Sequence record: PQ100635.1 | Source of the DNA: Escherichia phage PNJ-9 | Length of the DNA: 64,000 bases | Direction: 5' to 3' (one strand) | Part shown: piece after piece, positions 38,326 through 59,249 of the stretch | How positions within the stretch are numbered: position 1 is the stretch's first letter | How the letters are laid out: every line of letters begins with the position of its first letter | The notes under the pieces: model-generated | Databases searched by the model: none | The model's input: only the letters and a program-made list of their open reading frames with translations | What the model was told of the DNA's origin: nothing | Translations under genes and position numbers: made by a program

Positions 38326-39012
38326 ATGAAACTGTCTAAAGATACTATCGCTATTCTGAAAAACTTTGCCTCTATTAACTCTGGCATTCTGCTGAGTCAA
38401 GGTAAATTTATTATGACTCGTGCAGTTAATGGTACCACTTATGCGGAAGCAAATATCTCTGATGAAATTGATTTTGACGTAGCACTTTATGATTTGAATA
38501 GCTTCTTAAGCATTTTGAGTCTAGTGTCTGATGATGCTGAAATTTCAATGCACACCGATGGCAATATTAAAATTGCAGATACACGTTCCACGGTTTATTG
38601 GCCTGCCGCTGACAAGAGCACCATTGTTTTTCCTAATAAGCCAATTCAATTCCCAGTGGCTTCTGTGATTACTGAAATTAAAGCTGAAGACCTTCAACAA
38701 TTGCTTCGAGTTTCACGTGGTCTTCAGATTGATACAATTGCTATTACAAATAAAGATGGTAAAATTGTTATCAATGGCTATAATAAAGTTGAAGATTCCG
38801 GACTAACTCGTCCTAAGTATTCTTTGACTCTTACCGATTATGATGGTTCTAACAACTTTAACTTCGTAATCAATATGGCTAATATGAAAATTCAGCCGGG
38901 TAATTATAAAGTAATGTTGTGGGGAGCTGGTGATAAAGTTGCAGCCAAGTTTGAAAGCCCTCAAGTAAGTTATGTTATTGCGATGGAAGCCGATTCTACT
39001 CACGACTTCTAA
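38326..39012 (+). CDS. 45: sliding clamp gp45
   Basis: MKLSKDTIAILKNFASINSGILL... near-identical to T4 gp45. Confidence 0.95.
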   Translation: MKLSKDTIAILKNFASINSGILLSQGKFIMTRAVNGTTYAEANISDEIDFDVALYDLNSFLSILSLVSDDAEISMHTDGNIKIADTRSTVYWPAADKSTIVFPNKPIQFPVASVITEIKAEDLQQLLRVSRGLQIDTIAITNKDGKIVINGYNKVEDSGLTRPKYSLTLTDYDGSNNFNFVINMANMKIQPGNYKVMLWGAGDKVAAKFESPQVSYVIAMEADSTHDF

Positions 39013-39015
39013 GTC

Positions 39016-39042
39016 AAAGCTTTACGTTTATTGTGATACGAT
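39016..39042 (+). promoter_or_regulatory. middle-promoter-like element upstream of gene 44
   Basis: AAAGCTTTA MotA-box-like, 12 bp, TACGAT. Confidence 0.35.
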
Positions 39043-39087
39043 TATGGAGGAGAAATCCTCCAGTTTAATGATAATGAGGAAAATTAC

Positions 39088-40050
39088 ATGATTACTATCA
39101 ATCCCAAAGAACACATTCTAGAACAGAAATATCGTCCTTCTTCCATTGACGAATGTATTCTGCCTGCGTATGACCATGAAACATTCAAGTCTTTAGTATC
39201 TAAAGGAAAACTTCCTCATATTATTTTGCACTCTCCTTCTCCTGGTACAGGTAAAACAACTGTAGCAAAAGCATTATGTAATGATATCAACGCTGAAATG
39301 ATGTTCGTCAACGGTTCCGATTGTAAAATTGATTTTGTACGCGGTCCGTTAACCGCATTCGCTCGTTCAGTCTCAATGGAAGGCAAGCCTAAAGTTATTG
39401 TTATTGATGAATTTGACCGTAGTGGTCTCGCCGAATCACAACGTCACCTTCGTACGTTTATGGAAGAATTCTCTAGTAACTGTTCTATTATTATTACTGC
39501 TAACAACATCGATGGAATTATTGAACCATTACGTAGTCGTTGTCGAGTTATCGAATTCGGACGTCCAACCGAAGAAGATAAAATCTCGATGATGAAGAAA
39601 ATGATTCATCGTATGGTTGAAATCTGTAAGAACGAAAATATCGAAATCGCTGATATGAAAGTTGTTGCAGCTCTGGTTAAAAAGAACTTCCCGGACTTTC
39701 GTCGTACAATTGGTCAATTAGACCAGTACTCGTCTAAAGGTGTTCTTGATGCGGGTATTTTGTCTATCGTAACTAATGACCGTGGCACAGTCTCTGATGT
39801 TATTGAAGCAATGAAGAACAAAGATATCAAACAGCTTCGTGCATTAGCTCCAAAATATGCTGCTGATTATTCATGGTTCATCGATAAATTAGTTTCAGAA
39901 TGTTATGACCAAGTTGCACCTGGTAAAAGTATTATTTCGCTTTATGAAATTGCAGGCGAAAACAATAAGTTTCATGGATTAGCAAGTAATATTGAATTAC
40001 ATGTTATGTATATGCTTCTTCAACTGACCTGCGAACTGACTTGGAAATAA
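39088..40050 (+). CDS. 44: clamp loader large subunit gp44
   Basis: [18 protein letters not shown]...[10 protein letters not shown] Walker A; matches T4 gp44. Confidence 0.95.
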
Positions 40051-40051
40051 T

Positions 40052-40615
40052 ATGAACTTATTCGATGATGACGTCCGGCTTAACGAGCACCAAATTGCAT
40101 GGAAGTCTAATGACGCTGATGCGATTCAAAAATGTGCTGATATGTTTAAAGAAAAACCTGAGAATGAATTCTTTAAAATCATTAATGCTATTAATGAAAA
40201 GAAATCTATGTCAATTGCTCAGGTCGACTACTCAAAATTTATGGTTGAGAACTCATTATCCCAGTTCCCAGAATGTATGCCAGCTGTTTACATGATGAAC
40301 TTAGTCGGTTCTGAATTAAGTGATGAAGCGCACTTCAACTATATGATGGCGGCAATTCCGCGTGGTCGTCGATTCTCTAAATGGGCTAAACTAGTCGAAG
40401 ACACTTCAGAGTTACTAGTTATCAAACTGTTGATGAAACATTACACAATCAACATGAATGATGCTACTGAGTATAAGCGGCTCCTTGAAAAAAATAACAA
40501 GTTGCCAATAGTCCTTAAAGAACTGAAGGCCATGGTCACTGATGAGTTTCTCAAAGAAGTTACAAAAAATGTGAAAGAACAAAAACAATTTAAAAAATTA
40601 GCATTGGAATGGTAA
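40052..40615 (+). CDS. 62: clamp loader small subunit gp62
   Basis: Position and size (187 aa) as T4 gp62. Confidence 0.88.
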
Positions 40616-40617
40616 AA

Positions 40618-40986
40618 ATGATTGAAATTAAATTGAAGAACCCTGAAGATTTTCTGAAAGTCAAAGAGACTTTGACCCGTATGGGCATCGCTAATAACAA
40701 GGATAAAGTCCTTTACCAGTCTTGTCATATCCTCCAAAAGCAGGGTAAATATTACATCGTCCACTTTAAAGAAATGTTGCGTATGGACGGACGTCAGGTT
40801 GATATTGATGGTGAAGACTATCAGCGACGTGATTCGATTGCTCAGTTGCTTGAAGACTGGGGATTGATTGTTATTGAAGACTCTGCTCGTGAAGATCTGT
40901 TTGGCCTGACTAATAACTTCCGTGTTATCTCTTTTAAACAGAAAGATGACTGGACTTTGAAAGCAAAATATACAATTGGTAATTAA
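40618..40986 (+). CDS. regA: translational repressor RegA
   Basis: MIEIKLKNPEDFLKVKETLTRMGIANNKDKVLYQSCHILQK matches T4 RegA. Confidence 0.93.
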   Translation: MIEIKLKNPEDFLKVKETLTRMGIANNKDKVLYQSCHILQKQGKYYIVHFKEMLRMDGRQVDIDGEDYQRRDSIAQLLEDWGLIVIEDSAREDLFGLTNNFRVISFKQKDDWTLKAKYTIGN

Positions 40987-40990
40987 AGCA

Positions 40991-41010
40991 ATGGGACTTC
41001 GGTCCCATTT
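40991..41010 (+). terminator. intrinsic terminator-like hairpin between regA and 43
   Basis: ATGGGAC-TTCG-GTCCCAT then TTT. Confidence 0.5.
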
Positions 41011-41067
41011 GGAGTATAATAAGTTCATCAACAAACAAAAGACAATAACTCGTCTAAAGGAAATTAA

Positions 41068-43779
41068 ATGAAAGAATTTTACTTAACGGTTGAACAGATT
41101 GGTGATTCAATTTTTGAACGTTACATCGATTCTAACGGCCGTGAACGTACTCGTGAAGTAGAATATAAACCATCACTGTTTGCTCATTGTCCAGAAAGTC
41201 AGGCCACGAAATATTTTGATATCTATGGTAAGCCGTGCACTCGTAAGTTGTTCGCTAATATGCGTGATGCCTCCCAATGGATTAAACGCATGGAAGATAT
41301 CGGACTTGAAGCACTTGGCATGGACGATTTCAAATTGGCGTATTTGTCTGACACTTATAACTATGAAATCAAATACGACCATACAAAAATTCGTGTGGCT
41401 AACTTCGACATCGAAGTAACATCTCCGGACGGGTTCCCTGAGCCGTCACAAGCAAAACATCCGATTGATGCTATCACCCATTATGACTCAATTGATGACA
41501 GGTTTTATGTATTTGACCTTTTGAATTCTCCATATGGTAATGTAGAAGAATGGTCTATTGAAATCGCTGCTAAGCTTCAAGAACAAGGCGGTGATGAAGT
41601 TCCATCCGAAATTATCGATAAAATCATTTATATGCCGTTCGATAACGAAAAAGAATTGTTGATGGAATATCTCAACTTCTGGCAGCAGAAAACTCCTGTC
41701 ATTTTGACTGGATGGAACGTTGAGTCATTTGATATTCCATATGTGTATAACCGAATCAAGAATATTTTTGGCGAATCTACTGCGAAACGTTTATCACCAC
41801 ATCGCAAGACTCGTGTTAAAGTTATCGAAAACATGTATGGTTCTCGTGAAATCATTACATTGTTCGGTATCTCTGTTCTTGATTACATTGACCTTTACAA
41901 AAAATTCTCTTTTACCAATCAACCATCGTATTCTCTGGATTATATTTCAGAATTTGAATTGAACGTTGGTAAACTGAAATATGACGGCCCTATTTCTAAG
42001 CTTCGTGAAAGCAATCATCAACGATATATTTCTTATAACATCATCGACGTATATCGGGTATTGCAAATTGATGCTAAACGTCAGTTCATCAACTTGAGTT
42101 TAGACATGGGTTATTATGCTAAGATACAGATTCAATCTGTGTTTAGCCCAATTAAAACATGGGATGCTATTATTTTTAATAGCCTTAAAGAGCAGAACAA
42201 GGTGATTCCACAAGGTCGTTCTCATCCGGTTCAACCTTATCCCGGCGCTTTTGTTAAGGAACCTATTCCAAATCGATACAAATATGTAATGAGTTTCGAC
42301 CTTACATCTCTGTATCCAAGTATTATTCGCCAAGTGAATATTAGCCCAGAAACAATAGCAGGAACGTTTAAAGTAGCTCCATTGCATGATTATATTAACG
42401 CTGTTGCTGAACGTCCTTCTGATGTGTACAGTTGTTCTCCTAACGGCATGATGTATTATAAAGACCGTGACGGTGTTGTTCCAACTGAAATCACTAAAGT
42501 CTTTAATCAACGTAAAGAACATAAAGGTTACATGCTTGCAGCTCAACGTAACGGTGAAATAATTAAAGAGGCATTGCATAATCCTAATCTTTCTGTTGAT
42601 GAACCATTAGATGTTGATTATCGTTTCGACTTCAGTGATGAGATTAAAGAAAAGATTAAAAAGTTGTCTGCTAAATCTCTTAATGAAATGTTGTTTAGAG
42701 CTCAACGTACTGAAGTTGCAGGTATGACTGCCCAAATTAACCGTAAATTGCTTATCAACTCACTTTATGGTGCGCTTGGCAACGTTTGGTTCCGTTATTA
42801 TGATTTGCGTAATGCTACTGCAATCACAACATTTGGTCAAATGGCTTTACAGTGGATTGAACGTAAAGTTAATGAATATCTGAATGAAGTTTGTGGTACA
42901 GAAGGTGAAGCTTTCGTTCTTTATGGTGATACAGACTCTATTTACGTATCTGCTGATAAAATTATCGATAAGGTTGGTGAATCTAAATTCCGTGATACCA
43001 ACCATTGGGTAGACTTCTTAGATAAGTTTGCACGTGAACGTATGGAACCAGCTATTGATAGGGGTTTCCGTGAAATGTGTGAATACATGAACAATAAACA
43101 ACACTTAATGTTCATGGACCGAGAAGCTATCGCTGGGCCTCCACTCGGTTCTAAAGGTATTGGTGGATTCTGGACTGGTAAGAAACGTTATGCATTAAAC
43201 GTGTGGGATATGGAAGGTACTCGTTACGCTGAGCCTAAACTCAAAATTATGGGTCTAGAGACTCAGAAATCTTCGACTCCTAAAGCAGTACAGAAAGCTC
43301 TTAAAGAATGTATTCGTCGTATGCTTCAAGAAGGTGAAGAATCATTACAAGAATATTTTAAAGAGTTTGAAAAAGAATTCCGTCAATTGAATTATATTAG
43401 CATCGCGTCGGTATCTTCTGCGAATAACATTGCTAAATATGATGTAGGTGGATTCCCTGGTCCCAAATGCCCGTTCCATATTCGTGGAATTCTGACGTAT
43501 AACCGGGCTATCAAAGGTAATATCGATGCACCGCAAGTTGTAGAAGGTGAAAAAGTATATGTTCTGCCTTTACGTGAAGGAAACCCATTCGGTGATAAAT
43601 GTATCGCATGGCCTTCTGGTACTGAAATCACAGATTTAATTAAAGACGACGTACTTCATTGGATGGACTACACTGTTCTCCTTGAGAAGACATTTATTAA
43701 ACCACTTGAAGGATTCACATCAGCAGCGAAACTCGATTACGAGAAGAAAGCATCTCTTTTCGATATGTTCGATTTTTGA
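41068..43779 (+). CDS. 43: DNA polymerase gp43 (family B)
   Basis: 903 aa; exo motifs FDIE, YNIIDV; pol motifs DxxSLYPS, YGDTDS. Confidence 0.96.
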   Translation: MKEFYLTVEQIGDSIFERYIDSNGRERTREVEYKPSLFAHCPESQATKYFDIYGKPCTRKLFANMRDASQWIKRMEDIGLEALGMDDFKLAYLSDTYNYEIKYDHTKIRVANFDIEVTSPDGFPEPSQAKHPIDAITHYDSIDDRFYVFDLLNSPYGNVEEWSIEIAAKLQEQGGDEVPSEIIDKIIYMPFDNEKELLMEYLNFWQQKTPVILTGWNVESFDIPYVYNRIKNIFGESTAKRLSPHRKTRVKVIENMYGSREIITLFGISVLDYIDLYKKFSFTNQPSYSLDYISEFELNVGKLKYDGPISKLRESNHQRYISYNIIDVYRVLQIDAKRQFINLSLDMGYYAKIQIQSVFSPIKTWDAIIFNSLKEQNKVIPQGRSHPVQPYPGAFVKEPIPNRYKYVMSFDLTSLYPSIIRQVNISPETIAGTFKVAPLHDYINAVAERPSDVYSCSPNGMMYYKDRDGVVPTEITKVFNQRKEHKGYMLAAQRNGEIIKEALHNPNLSVDEPLDVDYRFDFSDEIKEKIKKLSAKSLNEMLFRAQRTEVAGMTAQINRKLLINSLYGALGNVWFRYYDLRNATAITTFGQMALQWIERKVNEYLNEVCGTEGEAFVLYGDTDSIYVSADKIIDKVGESKFRDTNHWVDFLDKFARERMEPAIDRGFREMCEYMNNKQHLMFMDREAIAGPPLGSKGIGGFWTGKKRYALNVWDMEGTRYAEPKLKIMGLETQKSSTPKAVQKALKECIRRMLQEGEESLQEYFKEFEKEFRQLNYISIASVSSANNIAKYDVGGFPGPKCPFHIRGILTYNRAIKGNIDAPQVVEGEKVYVLPLREGNPFGDKCIAWPSGTEITDLIKDDVLHWMDYTVLLEKTFIKPLEGFTSAAKLDYEKKASLFDMFDF

Positions 43780-43819
43780 TATAATGTCATGGACGGTAAA
43801 CTAATTAAACGAGAGAAAT

Positions 43820-44455
43820 ATGAAAACTACTCCTATTACTATCGCTATTGACGCAATCATAAAACAATCTTCTTCTTTGGCCGCTATGGCCAAAGTAATT
43901 AGTCAAAACCCTGCTCGTTATAATGCTATTCTAGAAACTCTTCGACGCCCGGGACTTAGTAATTATGAAAGCCGAGTAATTATTACAGGTGTTGGTAAGA
44001 ATGCTAATATTGCAACTAAAGCTTCTGAGACATTTGCTTCACTCGGTATCCCGAGTATGTACTTGAACACTGGGCATTATTCTCACGGTGATGCAGGATT
44101 CATTGCGCCTAATGATGTGTTGATTCATATTAGTCGTTCTGGTAAAACTGAAGAAATGATAGGCGTGGCTAAGCATCTTAAAATGATTCGTCCGAACGTC
44201 AAACAGATTCTGTTGCATTGTAACCCAGACATTCCACAAGAATACGAAGCTCTTTTTGATTATACGTTCTGTACAGGCATCGCAGTAGAGGTTGATGAGA
44301 ATTCTCTGGCTCCGACCATGTCCACTACATTGTTGTTAGCGCTTATCGATACGTTTGCTATCAACCTTTCGTCTGAACGTGGATTTACCTCTAATGACTT
44401 CCTTAAGTTCCACCCTGGCGGTGCACTAGGTGCCATGTTACGAGGCGAACAATGA
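43820..44455 (+). CDS. SIS-domain sugar-phosphate isomerase (KdsD/GmhA-like; arabinose-5-phosphate isomerase candidate)
   Basis: GVGKNANIATKASETFASLGIPS...HGDAGFI...DVLIHISRSGKTEE follows KdsD-type SIS pattern; single SIS domain, 211 aa. Confidence 0.7.
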   Translation: MKTTPITIAIDAIIKQSSSLAAMAKVISQNPARYNAILETLRRPGLSNYESRVIITGVGKNANIATKASETFASLGIPSMYLNTGHYSHGDAGFIAPNDVLIHISRSGKTEEMIGVAKHLKMIRPNVKQILLHCNPDIPQEYEALFDYTFCTGIAVEVDENSLAPTMSTTLLLALIDTFAINLSSERGFTSNDFLKFHPGGALGAMLRGEQ

Positions 44456-44595
44456 AAGCAATAACAATAGGACTTTTACTATTGATGCTTGTCATGACTA
44501 TCTACTGGAGCTTAACGGCTCCAGTAATGATTCCGACTCTTATAATCGGATGGATTATGATTGGACTACAAGCAAAGTATGAATGCTTTAACTAG
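44452..44595 (+). CDS. small membrane peptide (47 aa), not on ORF track
   Basis: ATGA overlap with SIS gene stop; hydrophobic. Confidence 0.4.
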   Translation: MKAITIGLLLLMLVMTIYWSLTAPVMIPTLIIGWIMIGLQAKYECFN

Positions 44596-44636
44596 AATAG
44601 TGTACAATACTCCTACTTACCAATGAGGACCACAAC

Positions 44637-46325
44637 ATGAAAAAAGCTGTTATTCTTGGTGCTGGACTGGCAACTCGTTTGTATCCAATAACGCATCATA
44701 TTCCTAAGGTGCTTGTTAACTATAAACAAGACACTATTCTGAGCAATTTGTATACAATTTATTCTGACCTTGGCGCAGATGAAATTATTGTAGTAGTTCA
44801 TTCAAAATTTGCTGAAACTGTTCGAGCTTATTGTGAGCAAGAAGGGTTCAATGTGACTATTCGTACAGTTGATGAAGCGTATGGTTCTGCTTATGCTCTT
44901 GCTAAATTGCACAAAGATTTAGACGGCCATAATGTAATTGTTAACTGGTGTGATATTATTCCTGATTTTGGTTCGTGGTCTTGGAATGTTAACGCAATCT
45001 ATGTTAAGGGTGACGAATGTCGATATAATTTCGACGGTGAAAATATCACTAATGTAGGTTCAACAGGTGGTAATGTTGTAGGAATTTATCAGTTCAAAGA
45101 CTGGGAATTCTATATGGGTTCTACTGATGAGGAAATTCATGAATACTGCAAAGGACGTGATTTCGTAGAATTCCTTTACGGCAGCGCATTCAATAAATCA
45201 GAGCTTATGAATATCATCGACCTTGGTGATATGCCTAAACTTGAAAAAGCTCATGAAGTTCGTGAACTTAATCGTAGTTTTAATGCAGTTGAAATTGGCG
45301 AAGAAACGGTAACAAAGATTGCTTTAACAGAACAGGGCGTTGCACTTCAAAAAGATGAAGTCAATTGGTATAAGAAAGTTAAATCAGATTCAGTTCCACG
45401 GATTGTAAGTTATCATCCTGGCGGCCACTTTATTATGGAACGTATTAAAGGTAAGCCAGCATTTGAATATATTAAATCCAAATCAAGTCTTGCTCGTCCA
45501 CAAATTGTTGATGCAATTTTAGATGCACTGAAATTCAGCACAGACACTTATTTTGTAAGTCCTGAAACTGTTCGTCGTGATTTCACTAAAGAATTCTATA
45601 CTAAAGTTATTGATCGTTGTGAAAGTATTCAACCATTGATTGATTCATTTGGTAAAATCACACATGTGAACTACACTAAGATTGGGCGTCTGAAGCCAAT
45701 GTTGAAACAAGCTTTAGAACACCTTATTCGTTATCATAACCGTTCTCAGGGACAGTACTCTGTTATTCATGGTGACCCGAACTTCAGTAATACTATGATT
45801 ACTGATAATGGTGAAGTCAAGTTTATCGACCCTCGTGGATATTTTGGTGAAACCAAGATTTATGGGCCAAAATTGTATGATGAAGCTAAAGTGCTTTACG
45901 CTGTTTCAGGTTATGATGAATTCAACGCTAATCCGACTTGGGGACAGTTTACTATTGATGAAACAACTTGTAATGTGACTATTAACATCAATCCGTTAGT
46001 TTACAAATATGGAAAGATGAGTTCGTTTAATGAGTATCATCATTTGGCTGTAGCAATTATCTGGATTGCATTAGGTGGTTATTTCAAGAATAATCCACTT
46101 AAAGCGGTAGCCGCATATTATAAAGGTATGGAACTTCTGACTAAGCAATTACGTAATATGGGCCGTGTACTTCAAGACGGCTCTATTAGTTATGATGTAG
46201 CAGAACCTGTAACGGCTACTCTGATTACAAAAAATCCTGGTAAATGGGTACTAACTGATAAAGAAACTGGTGTTTCTTATCGTCCAATCGGTGGCGATAT
46301 CACTCATCAATGGGAACGAATCTAA
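44637..46325 (+). CDS. bifunctional sugar-1-phosphate nucleotidyltransferase / APH-type kinase
   Basis: N-terminal NTase motif ILGAGLATRLYP; C-terminal kinase motifs IHGDPNFSN and FIDPRG (Brenner motif). Confidence 0.7.
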   Translation: MKKAVILGAGLATRLYPITHHIPKVLVNYKQDTILSNLYTIYSDLGADEIIVVVHSKFAETVRAYCEQEGFNVTIRTVDEAYGSAYALAKLHKDLDGHNVIVNWCDIIPDFGSWSWNVNAIYVKGDECRYNFDGENITNVGSTGGNVVGIYQFKDWEFYMGSTDEEIHEYCKGRDFVEFLYGSAFNKSELMNIIDLGDMPKLEKAHEVRELNRSFNAVEIGEETVTKIALTEQGVALQKDEVNWYKKVKSDSVPRIVSYHPGGHFIMERIKGKPAFEYIKSKSSLARPQIVDAILDALKFSTDTYFVSPETVRRDFTKEFYTKVIDRCESIQPLIDSFGKITHVNYTKIGRLKPMLKQALEHLIRYHNRSQGQYSVIHGDPNFSNTMITDNGEVKFIDPRGYFGETKIYGPKLYDEAKVLYAVSGYDEFNANPTWGQFTIDETTCNVTININPLVYKYGKMSSFNEYHHLAVAIIWIALGGYFKNNPLKAVAAYYKGMELLTKQLRNMGRVLQDGSISYDVAEPVTATLITKNPGKWVLTDKETGVSYRPIGGDITHQWERI

Positions 46326-46711
46326 TGCACCGTGTAAAAAACATGCTTAATCTTTGTTTTGATGTCGATGATTGCATCACGGAATGGAATAACAATCGTG
46401 ATTACGTGAACTTCAAACCAGACGTCGAAATGGTGTCTGCCATTAATGCCCTATATGATGCAGGGCATACAATAACGCTTTACACTGCTCGCGGTATGAA
46501 GTCAGTCGGTCCTGGTCGTATAGCAATTGACATTCTCCCAAGTCTGATTCAGAACTTGGCAAACATTGGATTGAAGTACCATAATTTGCTAACACATAAA
46601 CCAGTATATGATTGGATTATCGACGACAAAGCTATGCGTCCTGACGAATTCAAAGCTCTTATGAATAAAGGCGAATTCGAAACATTTAAATCATATAAAC
46701 CGAATCTATAA
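46325..46711 (+). CDS. HAD-superfamily phosphatase
   Basis: HAD motif I FDVDDCIT near N-terminus, motif IV WIIDDK; TAATG overlap. Confidence 0.65.
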   Translation: MHRVKNMLNLCFDVDDCITEWNNNRDYVNFKPDVEMVSAINALYDAGHTITLYTARGMKSVGPGRIAIDILPSLIQNLANIGLKYHNLLTHKPVYDWIIDDKAMRPDEFKALMNKGEFETFKSYKPNL

Positions 46712-46765
46712 TAATTTAAGTAAGACCTGCAAAAACCATCGCAACAATTAACGCGAGATGCAAAA

Positions 46766-47926
46766 ATGAATACCTTTAAAATCGGAACGAATTTTGATTT
46801 AGCTCTTCTTGATAAAATCGTAGAGCTCAATAAAACTTATCCTAATAGCTTGATAAACGAAGTATACGGCTCTACCAGAGAAATGGCTTTTGTAGCAGCC
46901 AGACCTGATTTTAGGCTTCCTGACGTTGACAAAAAGATGTTAGAAGATTACGTTAAACGTTGTAACGAATTAGGTATTTGCTTTAACTATACACTCAACA
47001 CGATAAATCCTGGTTCAAAAAGAGAACTAGTTGAGTGGAAGAAGAAAGCTATTCAGGATTATGTTCAGTATCTTTGGTCAATAGGCGTATGGCGTATTAC
47101 TATCGCTAACCCTGTTGTTATGGAAATTGTTCGTGAAGTCAATAAAGACATTGAGATTGAAGTTTCAACAATTCTACATGTCGATGCTGTAACTCAAATC
47201 AAATACTTGCATGACCAATATAATATCAAAAAGGTCTGCTGTGGAATTCATAAGAACCGTTCAGTTTCTTTCCTGAAGCGTGCAGCAGAGTTTTGTAATA
47301 AGAACAATATAATATTTGAAGTTCTTGTAAATGAGTTCTGTTCTAATGCTGGTAAAGGGTATACAACACATTGTAGCTATCGTGACTCTTGCTATATTTT
47401 CCATAGCACCGATGTTACAGTAGATGATGCTAAATCCTTAAACGGATATCCAATGCAGCACTGTATTAAAGCTCGTGATACAGACCCATTTAACTGGTTG
47501 AGAACTCGTTTTGTTCGTCCTCAAGATTTGAAACTTTATAATGATATTGGTATCACTCAATTCAAAGTTTCAGGACGTACAGGTAGCACAGACTACATTT
47601 TGAAAGTTCTTGAAGCTTATGCTTCCGAAAAATTTGAAGGTAATTTGTTGGAATTGTGGAAGCCTTTAGAGACCATTTTCACTCTTGAAAATGAGACCGA
47701 GTTTTCACATACGGTAAATATTGAAACCTCTTTGTTAGATGGCTTTTTAGAAAAAAGGTGGTTCAGACATCCAGATTTCGATTGTGCTAATGAAATCTGC
47801 GGGACGACGTGTACATATTGTGAAAGATATTATAAACGTCAATTATCTAAAAACGGGTTAGCAGAAAACTCTATATCTATTATTGATATAACTAACTCTG
47901 ATGACGCTTTGAGGTACCCGGAATGA
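46766..47926 (+). CDS. Cys-rich protein of unknown function (candidate metal/Fe-S enzyme)
   Basis: 386 aa; C-terminal CANEICGTTCTYC (Cx4Cx3Cx2C) plus Cys pairs; no family assigned. Confidence 0.6.
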   Translation: MNTFKIGTNFDLALLDKIVELNKTYPNSLINEVYGSTREMAFVAARPDFRLPDVDKKMLEDYVKRCNELGICFNYTLNTINPGSKRELVEWKKKAIQDYVQYLWSIGVWRITIANPVVMEIVREVNKDIEIEVSTILHVDAVTQIKYLHDQYNIKKVCCGIHKNRSVSFLKRAAEFCNKNNIIFEVLVNEFCSNAGKGYTTHCSYRDSCYIFHSTDVTVDDAKSLNGYPMQHCIKARDTDPFNWLRTRFVRPQDLKLYNDIGITQFKVSGRTGSTDYILKVLEAYASEKFEGNLLELWKPLETIFTLENETEFSHTVNIETSLLDGFLEKRWFRHPDFDCANEICGTTCTYCERYYKRQLSKNGLAENSISIIDITNSDDALRYPE

Positions 47927-48066
47927 TTTCTAGAAAAACTTTTAACCACCAACTTAACGAAGAGATTTTGACTATGAAAATTAACAGCAACGAACAAATT
48001 CTTAAAAAGGCCCTGATGGGCCTTTTTAAAACTAAAGCGGCTAAAGTGATTAAAGAACCTGTTTAA
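47923..48066 (+). CDS. possible small ORF (47 aa), not on ORF track
   Basis: ATGA overlap with upstream stop; contains a terminator-like hairpin, so may be non-coding. Confidence 0.25.
   Translation: MISRKTFNHQLNEEILTMKINSNEQILKKALMGLFKTKAAKVIKEPV
48009..48027 (+). terminator. terminator-like hairpin in 47927-48204 gap
   Basis: GGCCC-TGAT-GGGCC flanked by A-run and T-run. Confidence 0.45.
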
Positions 48067-48160
48067 TTGGAATACTACGCTGATGCATTTCTTCATAGTG
48101 TTCTTGGAAGTATCGATGCTGAAGCTTTACGTTATATCAACATTGTCAAGAAATTCAAAT

Positions 48161-48185
48161 AAGCTTTACGAATTGAGTATATAAT
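48161..48185 (+). promoter_or_regulatory. middle-promoter-like element upstream of 42-like gene
   Basis: AAGCTTTA, 11 bp, TATAAT. Confidence 0.45.
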
Positions 48186-48204
48186 AAATTGTATTGAGGT
48201 AAAC

Positions 48205-48921
48205 ATGGGAAAACATAACACAATGAAATATATCAAAGCCGCAGATTTTCAAACCGCATTTAAAGCAGTCAATCGTGAAATTTTAGAAAACCCGGAATTC
48301 GTAACTGATTCTCGTATTGGACGTTGTAATGAAATTGGGTCTATGACAGTAGTTGTTGATACCCCTTCATCATTCAAAATGACCGACCCACGTATTAACC
48401 GCATCTCTTATGAATATGCCGAAGACTTCTGGAAATTTATGATTTCTGGTGGTACTGATGCAGAAGAAGCATTTAAGGCATATCCTAATGTCGCTAAATT
48501 TATTTCTAAACCAAAATCAGATGCTTTGCCTGCGAACTTCAACACTTTCTATGGTCCTCGCATTGCGGCCCAATTACCAACTCTTCTAAAAGAACTTAAA
48601 GAGAAACCTAACTCTCGAAGAGTTGTGTTCCAAATTCTAGAAAGTTCTGATCAGGCTTTGCTTGATTCGGATGAAACGCTTGAATATCCATGTACTGACT
48701 CAGTGACTTATTATATTCGTGATGGTAAGCTTTATACCCACTGTCATATGCGTTCTCAGAACTGTGCTGTTGTTATGCAGTTGGATTTTTATCTCCAAGG
48801 AAAATTACTTCATTATATCGCTAACGAATGTGGTGTAGAAGTTGGTGATTATACTCATACCATGGTAAGTGCCCATGTGTTTGAACGTGATTTTGATTAT
48901 GTTAAAGGATTCCTTGACTAA
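48205..48921 (+). CDS. 42: thymidylate-synthase-fold pyrimidine hydroxymethylase (divergent gp42-like)
   Basis: PNSRRVVFQI, catalytic-Cys segment PCTDSVTYYIRD, MRSQN...DFY align to T4 gp42; much more divergent than neighbours. Confidence 0.65.
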   Translation: MGKHNTMKYIKAADFQTAFKAVNREILENPEFVTDSRIGRCNEIGSMTVVVDTPSSFKMTDPRINRISYEYAEDFWKFMISGGTDAEEAFKAYPNVAKFISKPKSDALPANFNTFYGPRIAAQLPTLLKELKEKPNSRRVVFQILESSDQALLDSDETLEYPCTDSVTYYIRDGKLYTHCHMRSQNCAVVMQLDFYLQGKLLHYIANECGVEVGDYTHTMVSAHVFERDFDYVKGFLD

Positions 48922-49820
48922 TGGCTATTTTCCGCGTACCTATCTTGAGTATGCGGTCTTATGAAACTGGTCAGTATGCTATCCTTAAGGATGGCAACTT
49001 CCAACTTCATTTGCACCGTGCTAATCCAGGTGATGTAATTACATATCCACGTAATGCATCTGATATTAAAGAATGTGAACGTCTTTTCCCAGAATTTAAG
49101 TTTGTTCCATTATGGTATAAAGATAACGCATATAACACTCGTAAATATTTCTGGTCTGAAAATGAATTTGTGGTTGATTCATTAATTGCTTATTATGATT
49201 GTGATTTTCTAATCACAGATATCACTGGATATGACGGCGCTTTTGATGTGGAATTCAATTTCAATATCACTGCAGACCCTAATAAACCACGTTTTTATAT
49301 TGACGAATTCTTAAAAACCGATATGTTGTCGGTTAATCGTTCACTTCAAACTACTGTGTTGAATAAACGTCAAAAGGAAGTGCTGGTTAACGCTGGTGCC
49401 GATGGTAATAAGATTATCGTAACCCAGAAAGTTATACGTCCTTCCATCATGCAGCGTCTTGTAGGTGATTTGGCTCCTATTCATCTAGATGGTATTTTTC
49501 ATCCATTTCGAATTAGTGACCCGTGCTATCGTTTTGAACAAGTGGTTGAATGTGCAATTCAATTAGGTCAACCGCTTTATATAACCGATCCAAATAATAG
49601 CTTCGACAGAAATAAGTATCCTGAAGAAGCGCTGATTCGAATTTTTAAACCAACTAAAACTGAGTACTATCAAATTCTTAAAGGACGTCCGAAGATTCAA
49701 TATTTCGAAAATCCTGAAGAAGTATTTCATCCAGGTCTTGGCGAGTTCATCTACTTTAACGCTTTAATTTCTTCGCCGTATAATATACCTAAATATGAAG
49801 ATGTTGTAATCGAGGAATAA
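48921..49820 (+). CDS. hypothetical protein at beta-gt locus (candidate DNA sugar transferase)
   Basis: 299 aa; TAATG overlap with 42-like; no similarity to T4 beta-gt noted. Confidence 0.55.
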   Translation: MAIFRVPILSMRSYETGQYAILKDGNFQLHLHRANPGDVITYPRNASDIKECERLFPEFKFVPLWYKDNAYNTRKYFWSENEFVVDSLIAYYDCDFLITDITGYDGAFDVEFNFNITADPNKPRFYIDEFLKTDMLSVNRSLQTTVLNKRQKEVLVNAGADGNKIIVTQKVIRPSIMQRLVGDLAPIHLDGIFHPFRISDPCYRFEQVVECAIQLGQPLYITDPNNSFDRNKYPEEALIRIFKPTKTEYYQILKGRPKIQYFENPEEVFHPGLGEFIYFNALISSPYNIPKYEDVVIEE

Positions 49821-49821
49821 A

Positions 49822-50370
49822 ATGGCTAAAATTATTTTAGTAGATGGCCCGGATAATGCTGGTAAAACAACTTTCATTAATGACATAATGGAAATTAGTG
49901 AAAGATATGTAAAGATTGATTTCCCTAAACGAACAGTTGATGGACGTTTCGATGTTAAGTCTCGAAATGAAGTTGGCTGTTTCGAAACGATGTTGAATTA
50001 TTTAGACCCTACTAAGATTTATCTGTTAGACCGTGGATATATTAGTAACTGGGTTTATGGACGTATTCGACAAGATGCGGACTCGGTTCTTGACGTTTAT
50101 GAACAGGATTATGTTCGTCTTTGCCAAAACCATGATGTGTTCACAATTATTTTAACACGTAACGAAATGACTGAAAGTTTTGAAGACGACCTTATTACTT
50201 TGTCTTCGTTCGGTTTTAATACAGTCATTTCATATTTTGAAGAGTTTGCAATTCATAACGAAATCCAAACGTATCAATTACTTAATCATGATGGTGCTAA
50301 CAAAGTTATAGGATTTAATGCAAGCGAACGTAATAATTTGATTACAGAAATTATCAAATGGGCTCGTTAA
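49822..50370 (+). CDS. thymidylate-kinase-like P-loop nucleotide kinase
   Basis: P-loop VDGPDNAGKTT and DRGY (DRY-like) motif. Confidence 0.6.
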   Translation: MAKIILVDGPDNAGKTTFINDIMEISERYVKIDFPKRTVDGRFDVKSRNEVGCFETMLNYLDPTKIYLLDRGYISNWVYGRIRQDADSVLDVYEQDYVRLCQNHDVFTIILTRNEMTESFEDDLITLSSFGFNTVISYFEEFAIHNEIQTYQLLNHDGANKVIGFNASERNNLITEIIKWAR

Positions 50371-50469
50371 GAGCCTGTTTAAAGTTTTAAATGCTGTATA
50401 ACCCTTAGTATATAATCGTCTTATCTTTTAAACATGAGTAAAATATAATGATGCCTATGGAAAAATACA

Positions 50470-51642
50470 ATGTCTGATTTAAAATCTCGTCTGATTAAAG
50501 CTTCTACTTCTAAAATGACTGCAGACTTGACTAAGTCTAAGCTGTTTAATAATCGTGATGAAGTCCCTACTCGTATTCCGATGTTGAATATTGCATTAGG
50601 TGGTGCACTGAATGCCGGGTTGCAATCAGGCTTAACTATTTTTGCTGCTCCTTCTAAACACTTTAAAACGTTGTTTGGACTGACCATGGTTGCAGCATAT
50701 ATGAAGAAATATAAAGATGCAATCTGTTTGTTCTATGATTCAGAATTTGGTGCTTCAGAATCTTATTTTCGTTCAATGGGTGTTGATTTAGACCGTGTAG
50801 TTCATACACCAATTCAGTCAGTCGAACAACTTAAAGTTGATATGACTAATCAGCTTGACGCGATTGAACGCGGTGATAAAGTTATTATCTTTATCGATTC
50901 AATCGGTAATACTGCATCTAAGAAAGAAACTGAAGATGCATTGAACGAGAAAGTTGTAGGTGATATGTCTCGTGCTAAGGCACTTAAATCTCTTTTCCGT
51001 ATTGTGACCCCGTATCTGACTATTAAAGATATTCCGTGTGTTGCAATTAACCATACCGCAATGGAAATTGGCGGATTGTATCCTAAAGAGATTATGGGCG
51101 GTGGTACAGGTATTCTTTATTCTGCTAACACTGTATTCTTTATCTCTAAACGTCAGGTTAAAGAAGGTACAGAATTGACCGGTTACGACTTCACGTTGAA
51201 AGCAGAAAAATCTCGTACAGTTAAAGAGAAATCTACTTTCCCGATCACGGTTAATTTCGATGGTGGTATCGACCCATTCAGTGGCTTGTTAGAAATGGCA
51301 ACTGAAATTGGTTTTGTAGTTAAGCCTAAAGCTGGTTGGTATGCTCGTGAATTCCTTGACGAAGAAACAGGTGAAATGATTCGTGAAGAAAAATCATGGC
51401 GTGCTAAAGCTACTGATTGTGTAGAATTCTGGGGACCGTTGTTTAAACACAAACCTTTCCGAGATGCAATTGAAACTAAATATAAACTAGGTGCTATCTC
51501 TTCTATTAAAGAAGTTGATGACGCTGTTAACGACCTTATTAATTGCAAAGCAACAACTAAAGTTCCGGTTAAAACTTCTGATGCTCCGTCTGCAGCAGAT
51601 ATAGAAAACGACCTTGACGAAATGGAAGATTTCGATGAATAA
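50470..51642 (+). CDS. uvsX: recombinase UvsX (RecA-like)
   Basis: 390 aa; MSDLKSRLIKAST...; RecA-fold P-loop; acidic C-terminus. Confidence 0.95.
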   Translation: MSDLKSRLIKASTSKMTADLTKSKLFNNRDEVPTRIPMLNIALGGALNAGLQSGLTIFAAPSKHFKTLFGLTMVAAYMKKYKDAICLFYDSEFGASESYFRSMGVDLDRVVHTPIQSVEQLKVDMTNQLDAIERGDKVIIFIDSIGNTASKKETEDALNEKVVGDMSRAKALKSLFRIVTPYLTIKDIPCVAINHTAMEIGGLYPKEIMGGGTGILYSANTVFFISKRQVKEGTELTGYDFTLKAEKSRTVKEKSTFPITVNFDGGIDPFSGLLEMATEIGFVVKPKAGWYAREFLDEETGEMIREEKSWRAKATDCVEFWGPLFKHKPFRDAIETKYKLGAISSIKEVDDAVNDLINCKATTKVPVKTSDAPSAADIENDLDEMEDFDE

Positions 51643-51976
51643 TCTCGATGATTTAAATCTAGAAATCGTTGATGAATCCCCTTCTTCGGAAGGGGAAGAC
51701 ATTCGCAAAGAACGAGTGTTTAATGAATCTCTTAAAATTATCCGTTCAGCAATGGAAAATGTCATTCAAGAGATTCTGATTACGCTTGAAGATGGTTCTC
51801 ATCATATAGTCTATATTACAAAACTAGACTGGGTTGATGGTAAAATCGTAATGGACTTTGCAGTTCTTGACCAGGACAGAAAAGCAGAACTTGCACCGCA
51901 TGTTGAAAAATGTGTTACAATGCAAGTACAACAAGCTTTTAATGAACGGACCAAGAAAAAATTTAAATTCTTTTAA
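51635..51976 (+). CDS. 40: gp40-like protein
   Basis: ATGAATAA overlap with uvsX stop; position between uvsX and 41 as in T4. Confidence 0.55.
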   Translation: MNNLDDLNLEIVDESPSSEGEDIRKERVFNESLKIIRSAMENVIQEILITLEDGSHHIVYITKLDWVDGKIVMDFAVLDQDRKAELAPHVEKCVTMQVQQAFNERTKKKFKFF

Positions 51977-51985
51977 GGAGTTATC

Positions 51986-53428
51986 GTGGTAGAAATTATT
52001 TTGTCTCATCTAGTATATGACCAGGCTTATTTTTCTAAGGTCTGGCCTTATATGGATTCTGAGTATTTTGAGCGTGGACCGGCAAAAAACGTCTTTAAAA
52101 TTATAAAGAGCCACGTTAACGAATATAATGCAATGCCGTCTATCAACGCATTAAAGGTGGCTTTAGATAACAGTTCTTTAACTGAAGCCGAATATAAAGG
52201 AACTTCAGATCTAATTGAAAAATTGGCTGATACTCCTGAAGACCACGAATGGTTGGTTAAAGAAACTGAGAAATATGTCCAGCAAAAAGCGATGTATAAT
52301 GCTACATCCAAAATCATTGAGATTCAGTCTAATGCTGAACTACCTCCAGAACAACGTAACAAGAAAATGCCTGACGTAGGAGCTATTCCTGATATTATGC
52401 GTCAAGCACTTTCAATTTCGTTTGATAGTTATGTTGGGCATGACTGGATGGAAGACTATGAAGCACGCTGGCTTTCTTATCTGAACAAAGCACGTAAGGT
52501 CCCGTTCAAATTAAACATTCTGAATAAAATCACTAAAGGTGGTGCTGAAACCGGTACACTGAATGTTTTAATGGCTGGTGTTAACGTTGGTAAATCTTTA
52601 GGCCTTTGTTCACTTGCTGCAGATTATCTTCAAACAGGTCATAATGTTCTTTATATTTCCATGGAAATGGCTGAAGAAGTTTGTGCTAAGCGTATAGATG
52701 CAAACATGCTTGACGTATCACTTGATGATATCGATGATGGTAACGTATCTTATGCCGAATATAAAGCCAAGATGGAAAAATGGCGTTCAAAATCCACATT
52801 AGGACGTTTAGTAGTTAAACAGTATCCTACTGGTGGAGCTAATGCTAATACATTCCGTGCATTGCTTAATGAATTGAAACTCAAGAAGAACTTTGTGCCA
52901 TCTGTAATCATGGTTGATTACTTAGGTATTTGTGGGTCTTGTCGTATCAGAGTTTACACTGAAAATAGCTACACATTAGTTAAAGCTATCGCAGAAGAAC
53001 TTCGTGCATTAGCAGTAGAATCTGAAACAGTTCTATGGACTGCAGCTCAAGTAGGACGTGCAGCATGGGATGCTTCGGATATGAACATGAGCGATATTGC
53101 AGAATCAGCAGGTTTACCAGCAACGGCAGATTTCATGTTGGCCGTAATTGAAACCGAAGAACTTGCACAAGCTGAACAACAACTTATCAAACAAATCAAA
53201 TCACGATACGGTGATAAGAATAAGTGGAATAAATTCCTGATGGGTGTACGTAAAGGCAACCAGAAATGGGTTGAGATTGAGCAAGAAGGCATGAACACAC
53301 CTAACACAGTAAATGAAAACGCAGGTGCTCAGATGCGTCAGGCAGAGGTGAATCGTACGGAACGCGTAGGTAAAGCCAAAACAACCCGTGCTGACCTAGA
53401 TAGCTTAGCCAATGAGTTAAAATTTTAA
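51986..53428 (+). CDS. 41: replicative helicase gp41 (DnaB-like)
   Basis: MVEIILSHLVYDQAYFSKVWPYMDSEYFE...; Walker A GVNVGKS; apparent GTG start after AAGGAG. Confidence 0.95.
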   Translation: MVEIILSHLVYDQAYFSKVWPYMDSEYFERGPAKNVFKIIKSHVNEYNAMPSINALKVALDNSSLTEAEYKGTSDLIEKLADTPEDHEWLVKETEKYVQQKAMYNATSKIIEIQSNAELPPEQRNKKMPDVGAIPDIMRQALSISFDSYVGHDWMEDYEARWLSYLNKARKVPFKLNILNKITKGGAETGTLNVLMAGVNVGKSLGLCSLAADYLQTGHNVLYISMEMAEEVCAKRIDANMLDVSLDDIDDGNVSYAEYKAKMEKWRSKSTLGRLVVKQYPTGGANANTFRALLNELKLKKNFVPSVIMVDYLGICGSCRIRVYTENSYTLVKAIAEELRALAVESETVLWTAAQVGRAAWDASDMNMSDIAESAGLPATADFMLAVIETEELAQAEQQLIKQIKSRYGDKNKWNKFLMGVRKGNQKWVEIEQEGMNTPNTVNENAGAQMRQAEVNRTERVGKAKTTRADLDSLANELKF

Positions 53429-57138: not shown

Positions 57139-58161
57139 ATGGCTGAATGGATAGATAATGAATTTGCTTATCGTGCGTTTTCTCACCTACCTCGTTTTAG
57201 ACAAATCAATAATTCAAGCACATTTAAATTAACATTTCGTTGTCCAGTTTGTGGCGACTCCCAGACAGATGCAATGAAAGCTCGCGGTTGGTATTATGGC
57301 GGTACTCCTGGTAATGTACATTGCTATAACTGCCAATACCACAATACAATTTCCGGATACTTAAAAGAGTATGATGAAGAGCTTTACCGCGAATATCTAA
57401 TGGAAGTTCGTAAAGAAAAAGCTAGAATGGAACCAAAGATTGAAAAGGTTCCTGAAGCTAAGCCGGAGCCAGAGAAAAAGACTATAAATTCTTTGCCGTC
57501 TTGTTCTCGTCTGGACAAGCTGCCTGAAGAGCATCCTATTGTGAAATATGTTAAGTCTCGATGCATTCCTAAAGAATCATGGAACAGATTATGGTTCACA
57601 TTAGAATGGCCTAAATTGGTCAACAAGATTCAACCTGGTACGTATAAGAAAGAGATTCCCGAACCACGTTTAGTGATTCCTATTTTTAATAAAGACGGGA
57701 AGGCTGAGTCATTCCAAGGACGTGCACTTCGTAAAGATGCTCCTCAGAAATATATCACTATTAAAGCGTTTGAGTCTGCAACAAAAATTTATGGTGTTGA
57801 ACGTGTTAAGGAAGGAGACGTCTGGGTAATGGAAGGCCCTATTGATAGTTTATTCATACCCAATGCAATCGCTATTACAGGCGGCTCAATAGATTTAGAT
57901 GTGGTACCATTTAAAGAACGTCGGGTATGGGTAATGGATAATGAACCTAGGCATCCGGATACTATAGCTCGCATGAAGCGATTAGTTGATGCAGGCGAAC
58001 GTGTCATGTTCTGGGACCGAGCTCCATGGAGATCAAAGGATGTGAATGATATGGTAATGAAAGAAAATGCAACACCACAAGAAATTTTAGAATATATGAA
58101 ACAGAATATTTCAAGTGGGTTGCATGCTAAAATGAGATTATCTCGTTATTCTAAGATTTAA
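57139..58161 (+). CDS. 61: DNA primase gp61
   Basis: Zinc ribbon CPVCGDS...CYNC; 340 aa; T4 gp61-like. Confidence 0.92.
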   Translation: MAEWIDNEFAYRAFSHLPRFRQINNSSTFKLTFRCPVCGDSQTDAMKARGWYYGGTPGNVHCYNCQYHNTISGYLKEYDEELYREYLMEVRKEKARMEPKIEKVPEAKPEPEKKTINSLPSCSRLDKLPEEHPIVKYVKSRCIPKESWNRLWFTLEWPKLVNKIQPGTYKKEIPEPRLVIPIFNKDGKAESFQGRALRKDAPQKYITIKAFESATKIYGVERVKEGDVWVMEGPIDSLFIPNAIAITGGSIDLDVVPFKERRVWVMDNEPRHPDTIARMKRLVDAGERVMFWDRAPWRSKDVNDMVMKENATPQEILEYMKQNISSGLHAKMRLSRYSKI

Positions 58162-58355
58162 ACAAGCCCTATAATAGCAAAGGCCAAATCAACTACAGTA
58201 TCTAATGGAACAGAAGGAACCATAACACCATGGGCAACTAACAATGGCGCAATACCGAAGTTCCATGAAATAATGCCACCTACAACTATTGCAGCGATAG
58301 CAGTTTTCTTTTTATTGCCTTTAATAGCGTTGATTAACGATGGAAGTTTAAACAT
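58158..58355 (-). CDS. small membrane protein on minus strand
   Basis: AAGGAG 6 nt upstream of ATG on minus strand; two hydrophobic segments; only convincing minus-strand gene. Confidence 0.55.
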   Translation of the reverse strand: MFKLPSLINAIKGNKKKTAIAAIVVGGIISWNFGIAPLLVAHGVMVPSVPLDTVVDLAFAIIGLV

Positions 58356-58445
58356 AATATCTCCTTAGTTACCTTATTATTTATTACGCTTTATAAAATT
58401 AATGTTAGAATTAACTTCTCTTATACTGAATTGAAAGGAAAAATA

Positions 58446-58967
58446 ATGGCACACTTTAACGAATGTTCACAACTTATTTCTGGTGTTGATAAAGCAGAAG
58501 AAGCTTATTTTAATGCTCTGATTCACGAAGATAAAGACCCTCTGCAGGTAATGCTTGATATGCAGAAATCTTTACAGGTTCGTCTGGCAAATGACAAGCC
58601 TGAACATAACAAACATCCTGATGAATTGGCTACTGCTGGTGATGTTGTTGATTGGCTGCGTAATCAGAAAGATTATATTGATGATGAATTCCGTGAACTG
58701 CTGACTTCACTTGGTGGTATGAGCAATGGTGAAAAAGCCGCTAGCTCTGTATGGAAGCCGTGGAAGGCACAACATGCTGAATATCGAAATCGTCGTATCG
58801 ATGAACTGTCTCCTGAAGACCAGCTTGAAATTAAATTTGAAATGATTGATATTCTGCATTTCGTTCTAAATATGTTCCAAGGTCTAGGACTTTCTGCTGA
58901 AGAAATCTTCAAACTGTATTACCTGAAAAACCAACACAACTTTGAACGCCAGGATAATGGTTACTAA
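58446..58967 (+). CDS. 56: dCTP pyrophosphatase gp56
   Basis: MAHFNECSQLISGVDKAEEAYFNALIHEDKDPLQVMLDMQ matches T4 gp56. Confidence 0.93.
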   Translation: MAHFNECSQLISGVDKAEEAYFNALIHEDKDPLQVMLDMQKSLQVRLANDKPEHNKHPDELATAGDVVDWLRNQKDYIDDEFRELLTSLGGMSNGEKAASSVWKPWKAQHAEYRNRRIDELSPEDQLEIKFEMIDILHFVLNMFQGLGLSAEEIFKLYYLKNQHNFERQDNGY

Positions 58968-58973: not shown

Positions 58974-58981
58974 TATAAATA
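58974..58981 (+). promoter_or_regulatory. late promoter TATAAATA upstream of soc
   Basis: Exact TATAAATA about 30 nt upstream of soc ATG. Confidence 0.55.
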
Positions 58982-59012: not shown

Positions 59013-59249
59013 ATGGGTGGTTATGTAAACATCAAAACCTTTACGCATCCTGCAGGTGAAGGCAAAGAAGTTAAAGGTATGGAAGTTTCTGTACCGTTTG
59101 AGATTTATTCAAACGAACATCGGATTGCAGATTCTCATTATCAGACTTTCCCGTCTGAAAAAGCTGCTTATACAACGGTAGTAACTGATGCCGCTGATTG
59201 GAAAACTAAGAACGCTGCAATGTTTACCCCTACACCAGTAAGTGGTTAA
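59013..59249 (+). CDS. soc: small outer capsid protein Soc
   Basis: GYVNIKTF...HYQTFPSEKAAYTTV matches T4 Soc; TATAAATA late promoter upstream; strong terminator downstream. Confidence 0.85.
   Translation: MGGYVNIKTFTHPAGEGKEVKGMEVSVPFEIYSNEHRIADSHYQTFPSEKAAYTTVVTDAADWKTKNAAMFTPTPVSG

Follow-up and report, generated by a model that had tools for sequence, protein, structure and literature searches.

A counterpart of the locus considered here is that of phage T4, where dam lies between gene 61 and gene 56, as the original prediction stated and as the reference record NC_000866.4 confirms. In this record dam occupies positions 16846..17625 of the complement strand and gene 61, on the same strand, positions 17935..18963; a gap of 310 bp separates them. 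T4 Dam is a soluble protein of 259 aa encoded on the early strand. The second point of comparison is a family of small proteins catalogued as phrog_2024 and as pVOG VOG1982 (RB32ORF030w and relatives), which are encoded at the 3' end of the primase gene. The copy in phage RB51 is annotated as RB32ORF030w, and its record notes similarity to RB69ORF029w. As for literature on T4 late or antisense transcription at 61-dam, on T4 ribosome profiling, on RB69ORF029w/RB32ORF030w and on OE5505, the searches returned nothing on the ORF described below.

The window, i.e., the whole stretch of DNA that was analysed, comprises 64,000 nucleotides of Escherichia phage PNJ-9 (PQ100635.1) and comes from a Mosigvirus of the RB69/JS09 kind. 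Its primase-to-dCTPase segment is 98.7% identical to that of Escherichia phage ST0 (Mosigvirus JS09 species, RB69-like), in which the counterpart of the window spans 159039..170496 plus 1..52841. The features of the segment and its surroundings are as follows.

57139..58161, plus strand: gene 61, DNA primase (phrog_47, E 8.9e-102), convergent with the 65-aa ORF
58158..58355, minus strand: CDS of a small hydrophobic protein of 65 aa with an ATG start, MFKLPSLINAIKGNKKKTAIAAIVVGGIISWNFGIAPLLVAHGVMVPSVPLDTVVDLAFAIIGLV, corresponding to FDI17_gp087 of phage ST0
58366..58361, minus strand: Shine-Dalgarno sequence AAGGAG of the 65-aa ORF, 5 nt (ATATT) ahead of the ATG at 58355..58353
58378..58385, minus strand: T4 late-promoter-like element AATAAATA (consensus TATAAATA, -13 to -6), 22 nt before the ATG
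58386..58411, plus strand: middle-promoter-like region of gene 56, with a MotA-box-like ACGCTTTA at 58386..58393, a 12-nt spacer and the -10 sequence TAGAAT at 58406..58411
58446..58967, plus strand: gene 56, dCTPase/dUTPase (MazG-like; phrog_173, E 1.6e-45), divergent from the 65-aa ORF
58974..58981, plus strand: TATAAATA directly upstream of soc (59013..59249, phrog_1715), which serves as the internal late-promoter comparison

The gap between primase and dCTPase is 284 nt long, has 198 nt taken up by the ORF and is otherwise non-coding. The stop codon of the ORF overlaps that of the primase by 4 nt (TTAA, 58158..58161), and the primase itself has about 74% amino-acid identity to Tequatrovirus primases. 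The original prediction of a hydrophobic 65-aa ORF on the minus strand amid plus-strand genes is borne out by the ST0 annotation, where it is the sole minus-strand CDS in the stretch corresponding to the window. The strong Shine-Dalgarno sequence is present as described, with a spacing of 5 nt instead of the claimed 6 nt, which is a trivial correction. An SD-like 4-mer at -16..-4 is found for only 1 of the 40 minus-strand ATG-initiated ORFs in the window that have 60 aa or more, namely this one, compared with 61 of 127 plus-strand ORFs. The observation of the 65-aa ORF is correct and non-random.

Profile comparison places the ORF within phrog_2024 (E 2.6e-27, residues 1-65 aligned to positions 1-65 of 65), a profile that is also matched by the T4, CJ20 and paralogue copies. 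The members of phrog_2024 and VOG1982 have the same length, the same position at the primase 3' end and the same orientation as the window ORF, and share the ATAAATA and SD arrangement upstream; there is no substantive difference between phrog_2024 and the window ORF, itself a member. The gene is thus already catalogued as a hypothetical protein, with its function unassigned in phrog_2024. The RefSeq label for FDI17_gp087 of ST0 is 'hypothetical protein', and the identical 65-aa sequence has been deposited many times under the same name. Two word-indexed protein searches return close T-even-like phage proteins only, each unnamed or 'hypothetical', and Pfam, NCBIfam and PDB sequence searches with the 65-aa protein give no relatives. 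According to an exhaustive HMM profile search among 1.84 billion representative proteins there are 6 matches, all from T-even-like phages. One of these 6 sequences resembles an artefact of C-to-T-converted reads.

Synteny-guided comparison distinguishes three sequence types of the family, distributed as follows.

A-type: Mosigvirus, Tequatrovirus and Gaprivervirus
B-type: Dhakavirus; also as a tandem upstream paralogue in ESCO47 and a metagenomic contig, and as remnants downstream of the ORF in P8 and CJ20
Third type: Jiaodavirus and Kanagawavirus

The A-type is found by tblastn in 692 phage records, and the B-type and the Jiaodavirus type in 140 and 169, respectively; the T4-type small ORF occurs in about 533. 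All three types have a common core, W-N-[FLY]-x3-P-x4-[HQ]-[GA]-x3-P-x4-[DEQ]. The ORF lies at the primase 3' end and is convergent with the primase in at least six genera, its position and orientation being conserved in Tequatrovirus (including T4), Mosigvirus, Gaprivervirus, Dhakavirus, Jiaodavirus and Kanagawavirus, and in one Yersinia phage.

According to the substitution pattern, this ORF is a genuine protein-coding gene of Tevenvirinae. With eight copies aligned by codon (window, ST0, BEU50, ESCO47, a metagenomic contig, T4, Yersinia phage P8 and Gaprivervirus CJ20), dN/dS between genera ranges from 0.04 to 0.38, with synonymous sites saturated. Between the window and ST0 there are 0 nonsynonymous and about 4 synonymous changes (pN 0, pS 0.083). 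Moreover, two independent deletions of three codons, in BEU50 and P0032, keep the frame, and Rfam gives no match for 57900..58600. Taken together, the substitution pattern, the in-frame indels and the lack of an Rfam match exclude both a chance ORF and a purely non-coding constraint.

It had been claimed that the ORF sits 'where T4 has dam'; T4, however, has both dam and an orthologue of the ORF at the equivalent place and in the equivalent orientation. The orthologue is located in the gap between dam and gene 61 (17738..17938, plus strand), encodes 66 aa with 55.6% identity, likewise shows the 4-nt overlap with the primase stop and is preceded by the SD GGAGG. It is absent from the annotation of NC_000866.4, and its exact protein sequence has no NCBI accession in the protein collection. 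The promoter-side neighbour of the T4 copy is dam, whereas that of the window ORF is gene 56. T4 Dam resembles the 65-aa ORF in map position only, dam being placed between the small ORF and gene 56, and the two have no homology. Since T4 carries both genes, the ORF is independent of dam and does not replace it.

As for dam itself, the claim that the window has no Dam-type ORF holds: tblastn with T4 Dam gives a best E of 6.4. The same search for a dam gene elsewhere in the genome, run on the complete closest genome (ST0), finds none (best E 4.6), while the positive control on T4 gives 1e-174. The whole-genome annotation of ST0 contains no methyltransferase, and a search for [DNS]PP[YFW] in combination with motif I (AdoMet-binding) recovers T4 Dam and nothing credible in ST0. 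The dam-less order 61-ORF-56 is also seen in the Tequatroviruses RB51 and teqdroes, Gaprivervirus CJ20, Yersinia phage P8, Dhakavirus IME281 and Jiaodavirus pKp20. In Kanagawavirus CIP9 the ORF is accompanied by another gene, of 95 aa and on the early strand, at the T4 dam site; the gap between 61 and 56 in Karamvirus UFV01 holds an early-strand ORF of 94 aa and none on the minus strand, and in Krischvirus 011D4 gene 61 abuts gene 56. Dam proteins at least 90% identical to T4 Dam occur in only about 182 phage records, compared with the 533 or so that have the T4-type small ORF. A 61-56 locus without dam is the common state, and the pattern suggests that the T4/T2 lineage acquired dam as an accessory insertion, not that the lineage of the window lost it. 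In T4 the counterpart of the region upstream of gene 56 in the window is, by alignment, the dam-56 spacer, where the mot box and -10 of P(M)16.53 are annotated; the T4 ORF-dam spacer also resembles this upstream region. These intergenic alignments fit dam having been inserted as a cassette between two divergent promoters; in T4/T2 it would be an accessory cassette set between the promoter of the small ORF and that of gene 56.

The original prediction also held that loss of Dam methylation would fit a different DNA modification regime, which stands in its parts and falls in their connection. Dam is absent, and the lineage of the window very probably modifies its cytosines differently. Arabinosyl-hmC is the form present in RB69, and JS09-type phages have close homologues of the candidate genes (PMC6024577). 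Homologues of the ST0 sugar-isomerase genes are present in the window at 43820..44455 and 46325..46711. RB51 and teqdroes, however, are close T4 relatives and also dam-less, and thus the absence of dam is not specifically tied to arabinosyl-hmC. Being the common state, it says nothing specific on the sugar-modification regime.

Regarding the predicted product, the 65-aa protein has a GRAVY of 1.20, and its most hydrophobic 19-mer (1.93) covers residues 22-40. The basic cluster is N-terminal, and the C-terminal 24 residues have a net charge of -2 and end in AFAIIGLV; among A-type orthologues the N-terminus has a net charge of +5 and the C-terminus of -2. The AlphaFold2 model, built from an alignment of 11 sequences, has a pLDDT of 80 and contains helices at 3-11, 15-41 and 51-62. 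Foldseek with this model returns only family members from BFVD and nothing meaningful from PDB. Given the charge distribution and the positive-inside rule, the product is predicted to be a bitopic inner-membrane protein with a single span, the N-terminus inside and the C-terminus outside. An invariant Asn in the middle of the membrane is a typical driver of helix-helix binding, and oligomerisation or binding of a partner is therefore proposed for this protein.

The element upstream of the ORF points to late expression, and the transcription start is predicted near 58372. In all nine upstream loci that were read (window, BEU50, T4, Yersinia phage P8, CJ20, metagenomic contig L010, ESCO47, Dhakavirus IME281 and Jiaodavirus pKp20) ATAAATA precedes the start codon of the first minus-strand ORF by 15-23 nt and is followed by a strong SD. 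The base preceding it is A, G or C across these loci, and the flanks have diverged. At -13 of the late element the window has A, T4 has G and several other phages have C; T at this position is poorly conserved in T4-like phages according to Nolan et al. (PMC1524935). In the 64 kb of the window WATAAATA occurs 12 times compared with 19.5 expected, and only 2 of these sites are on the minus strand. The other minus-strand AATAAATA, at 9765..9772, was dismissed, as it lies within a plus-strand gene and has no credible ORF behind it.

The same layout can be followed through the ST0 genome. There, 26 of the 57 NATAAATA sites (46%) have an SD, an ATG and an ORF of at least 50 aa 12-45 nt downstream. 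For four permuted 7-mers used as controls the fraction is 3-8%, and for the fifth (TAAATAA), which overlaps the motif, it is 21%. In ST0 the rI, inh, lysozyme e and gp15 homologues have AATAAATA, SD and ATG in this arrangement, and the 65-aa ORF runs in the same direction as the structural (late) genes. In the T4 record X01416 a putative late promoter is annotated before soc. A scan of the minus strand reveals neither a sigma-70-like promoter near the ORF nor a terminator-like site after it. Because ATAAATA occurs in the layout shared with rI, inh, e and gp15, late, gp55-dependent expression is predicted for the 65-aa ORF and is considered likely.

The late element AATAAATA stands back to back with the middle-promoter-like region of gene 56, which, given its similarity to T4, presumably functions as a middle promoter. 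In dam-less phages the reverse complement of the late element abuts or overlaps the MotA box of gene 56, the shared sequence being TATTTATGCTTCA in P8 and CJ20. Part of the conservation of the late element could therefore serve the gene 56 promoter on the opposite strand. Conservation of ATAAATA merely as a flank of the MotA box is, however, unlikely to be the whole story, since in T4 GATAAATA stays with the ORF despite dam, which separates it from the MotA box.

Several other explanations of the locus were weighed against that of a genuine late gene. A chance ORF with conservation owed to non-coding constraints (primase 3' UTR, promoter or origin sequences) might be considered, given the small size of the ORF, the AT-rich genome, the many antisense ORFs of comparable length and the adjoining homologue of the oriA promoter. 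This explanation is hardly credible and is effectively refuted already by the substitution pattern, with dN/dS far below 1 at saturated dS and in-frame indels, to which are added an SD unique among minus-strand ORFs, the existence of a profile family and the absence of an Rfam match. That the locus is chiefly a late promoter driving antisense RNA into gene 61, with shut-off of the primase late in infection and the peptide secondary, is improbable, although the ORF is always convergent with gene 61, usually with the 4-nt overlap, and has no terminator-like site after it on the minus strand. An antisense RNA needs neither strong purifying selection on an amino-acid sequence nor paralogues and in-frame indels, and the SD is strong and conserved. 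Similarly, the ORF could be seen as taking the place of dam and marking a lineage-specific loss of Dam methylation linked to arabinosyl-hmC, as dam is missing from both the window and the ST0 genome and genes for arabinosyl-hmC are present in the lineage. The T4 and RB51 loci, however, already contradict this: T4 has both the ORF and dam, RB51 and teqdroes have no dam and yet show the 61-ORF-56 layout, and the site between the ORF and gene 56 holds other cargo in Kanagawavirus and Karamvirus. We regard such a replacement as very improbable.

The remaining explanations accept the gene and differ in its timing or role. Expression could be early or middle, as would suit a membrane protein of superinfection exclusion or immunity such as Imm or Sp, since the ORF is inside the early/middle block near imm-like and sp genes and its promoter element departs from TATAAATA at -13. 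T4 Imm and Sp are also small envelope-targeted accessory proteins encoded a few kb from the ORF; their genes, however, are on the early strand and expressed early, whereas the 65-aa ORF is on the opposite strand behind a late-type element, and there is no sequence similarity between them. In addition, no sigma-70-like or MotA-type promoter was found on the strand of the ORF, which opposes the early transcription running from 61 to 56, and its ATAAATA and SD layout is that of bona fide late genes in ST0; early or middle timing is thus rated unlikely. A holin or another part of lysis timing (an antiholin or lysis-inhibition factor), which would build up late in the inner membrane and form lesions or modulate the T holin, is in our estimate a doubtful alternative as well, and a lysis-related role is a minority possibility. 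The product is small, hydrophobic and predicted to be late, with at least one transmembrane domain predicted, as in other small phage membrane proteins such as T4 holin T and the class II or pinholin-type holins (S21, T7 gp17.5), and T4 holin T has the very topology predicted here, N-in with a single TM and C-out. Promoters of the AATAAATA type precede rI and e in ST0, and one depositor named a T4-type orthologue 'Holin', a label given without support. In contrast to those holins, the C-terminus is hydrophobic and acidic instead of a typical charged hydrophilic tail, and there is no sequence or fold match to characterised holins. The gene lies outside the lysis cassette, away from endolysin, t, rI and spanins (ST0 positions: e, 165.4 kb; t, 70.7 kb; spanins, 92.8 kb; counterpart of the ORF, 46.5 kb), and t, encoding holin T itself, as well as rI, rIII-like and spanin genes are already annotated elsewhere in ST0. 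As for type I toxins of the Hok/TisB kind, the ORF is hydrophobic and antisense to the read-through path from 61 to 56; no dedicated antisense RNA gene was found for it, and there is neither an Rfam match nor toxin homology.

The explanation that fits best as a whole, and that we consider probable, is a genuine, late-expressed gene for a small inner-membrane accessory protein, independent of dam. The ORF has its own short leader, a strong SD and a gp55-type (N)ATAAATA about 22 nt upstream of the ATG, and would be transcribed late, toward the structural genes, from a compact divergent region shared with the gene 56 middle promoter. Facing the cytoplasm, the N-terminal part of the product would consist of a short amphipathic helix and a Lys cluster (net +5). 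It would be followed by one transmembrane helix (about 18-41) with an invariant Trp-Asn in mid-membrane and a Pro, by a conserved His/Gln-Gly...Pro turn and, in the periplasm, by a C-terminal helix that is acidic and amphipathic. The membrane-embedded invariant Asn may mediate self-association or the binding of a partner membrane protein. At the weakest step of this scheme, the product would act on the envelope late in infection, as an accessory factor that is not essential. A more specific and rather speculative version is that of an overlooked late gene whose bitopic product uses the Trp-Asn to bind and tune a membrane machine late in infection, with holin T/RI lysis timing or membrane-bound prohead initiation as candidates.

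The reference record NC_000866.4 is without a gene on which purifying selection clearly acts and which at least six genera of Tevenvirinae have in common. The late-promoter-type element and the adjoining gene 56 middle promoter, the counterpart of the T4 oriA promoter, would make up a compact divergent control region. The spot between both promoters appears to be an insertion site for accessory genes, occupied by dam in T4/T2 and by ORFs of 94-95 aa in Karamvirus and Kanagawavirus, and the missing dam is an ordinary, common polymorphism. If the product does tune a membrane machine, it would add a component to a T4 pathway whose parts were believed to be completely catalogued, and its overlooked gene would be common to roughly a thousand sequenced T-even-type phages, T4 included.

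Insertions recur in the short stretch that separates the small ORF (58158..58355, minus strand) from gene 56. This spacer is occupied by dam in T4 and T2 and by an early-strand ORF of 94-95 aa in Karamvirus and Kanagawavirus. Yersinia phage P8 carries a homing endonuclease on the other side of the small ORF. The regions concerned are as follows.

Window 58356..58445: insertion-site region
L002 (T4 segment) 3787..3846 and 4627..4738: insertion-site regions
L021 (Kanagawavirus CIP9) 1670..1957: insertion-site region
L016 (Karamvirus UFV01) 2826..3110: insertion-site region
L007 (Yersinia phage P8) 2786..3553: P8 region at this locus

As for T4, an orthologue of the small ORF lies in the 310-bp gap between dam and gene 61, preceded by a GGAGG Shine-Dalgarno (SD) sequence and GATAAATA, and is unannotated in NC_000866.4. 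No NCBI accession for its exact protein sequence is present in the protein collection. The small ORF is also without annotation in several other records, e.g., IME08, VR7, and F48.

L002 4739..4939 (NC_000866.4 17738..17938), plus strand: T4 orthologue of the small ORF, 66 aa

The locus also varies in copy number. ESCO47 and a metagenomic Mosigvirus-like contig have a tandem 67-aa paralogue directly upstream of the small ORF, and in both the ATAAATA element is shifted to the front of the pair. Degraded paralogue remnants are found downstream of the small ORF in P8 and CJ20, and Dhakavirus retains only the paralogue type.

L010 (metagenomic contig) 2305..2508: tandem 67-aa paralogue
L012 (ESCO47) 2305..2508: tandem 67-aa paralogue
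L007 (P8) about 2700..2783: paralogue remnant
L008 (Gaprivervirus CJ20) about 2707..2760: paralogue remnant

Tiny ORFs at this locus bear implausible product names in several relatives; in P8, for example, a 33-aa ORF is named "DNA packaging ATPase" and ORFs of the mrh region "molybdenum ABC transporter."

L007 (P8) 2715..2816 and neighbours: features with implausible product names

In the 61-aa protein database match P0040, nearly all differences from the T4-type protein are A-to-V, T-to-I, S-to-F/L, P-to-L, or H-to-Y substitutions. Such changes are typical of a gene assembled from C-to-T converted (bisulfite-like) reads, and P0040 was therefore rejected as a divergent relative and regarded as a database artefact.

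Besides the small-ORF site, the window has only one other minus-strand AATAAATA (9765..9772), which falls within a plus-strand GrcA-like gene. Neither a credible ORF nor an SD is found downstream of it, and the site probably either arose by chance or marks an antisense late start.

According to observed-to-expected (O/E) ratios, no other 4-bp palindrome in the window is nearly as depleted as GATC (30 observed vs 207 expected, O/E 0.14). The ST0 genome (L003-L006) and T4 (L002 and L013) were also examined, giving GATC ratios of 0.22 for ST0 and 0.34 for T4 13-72 kb. Across these three, GATC is depleted both with and without a phage dam gene, and more strongly without it.

Regarding DNA modification, the window contains homologues of two ST0 genes annotated as sugar isomerases, which adjoin the DNA polymerase gene.

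Window 43820..44455 and 46325..46711: homologues of the ST0 arabinose-5-phosphate isomerase and phosphoheptose isomerase genes

RB69/JS09-type phages have been described as carrying arabinosyl-hmC as a DNA modification, and these homologues are consistent with it.
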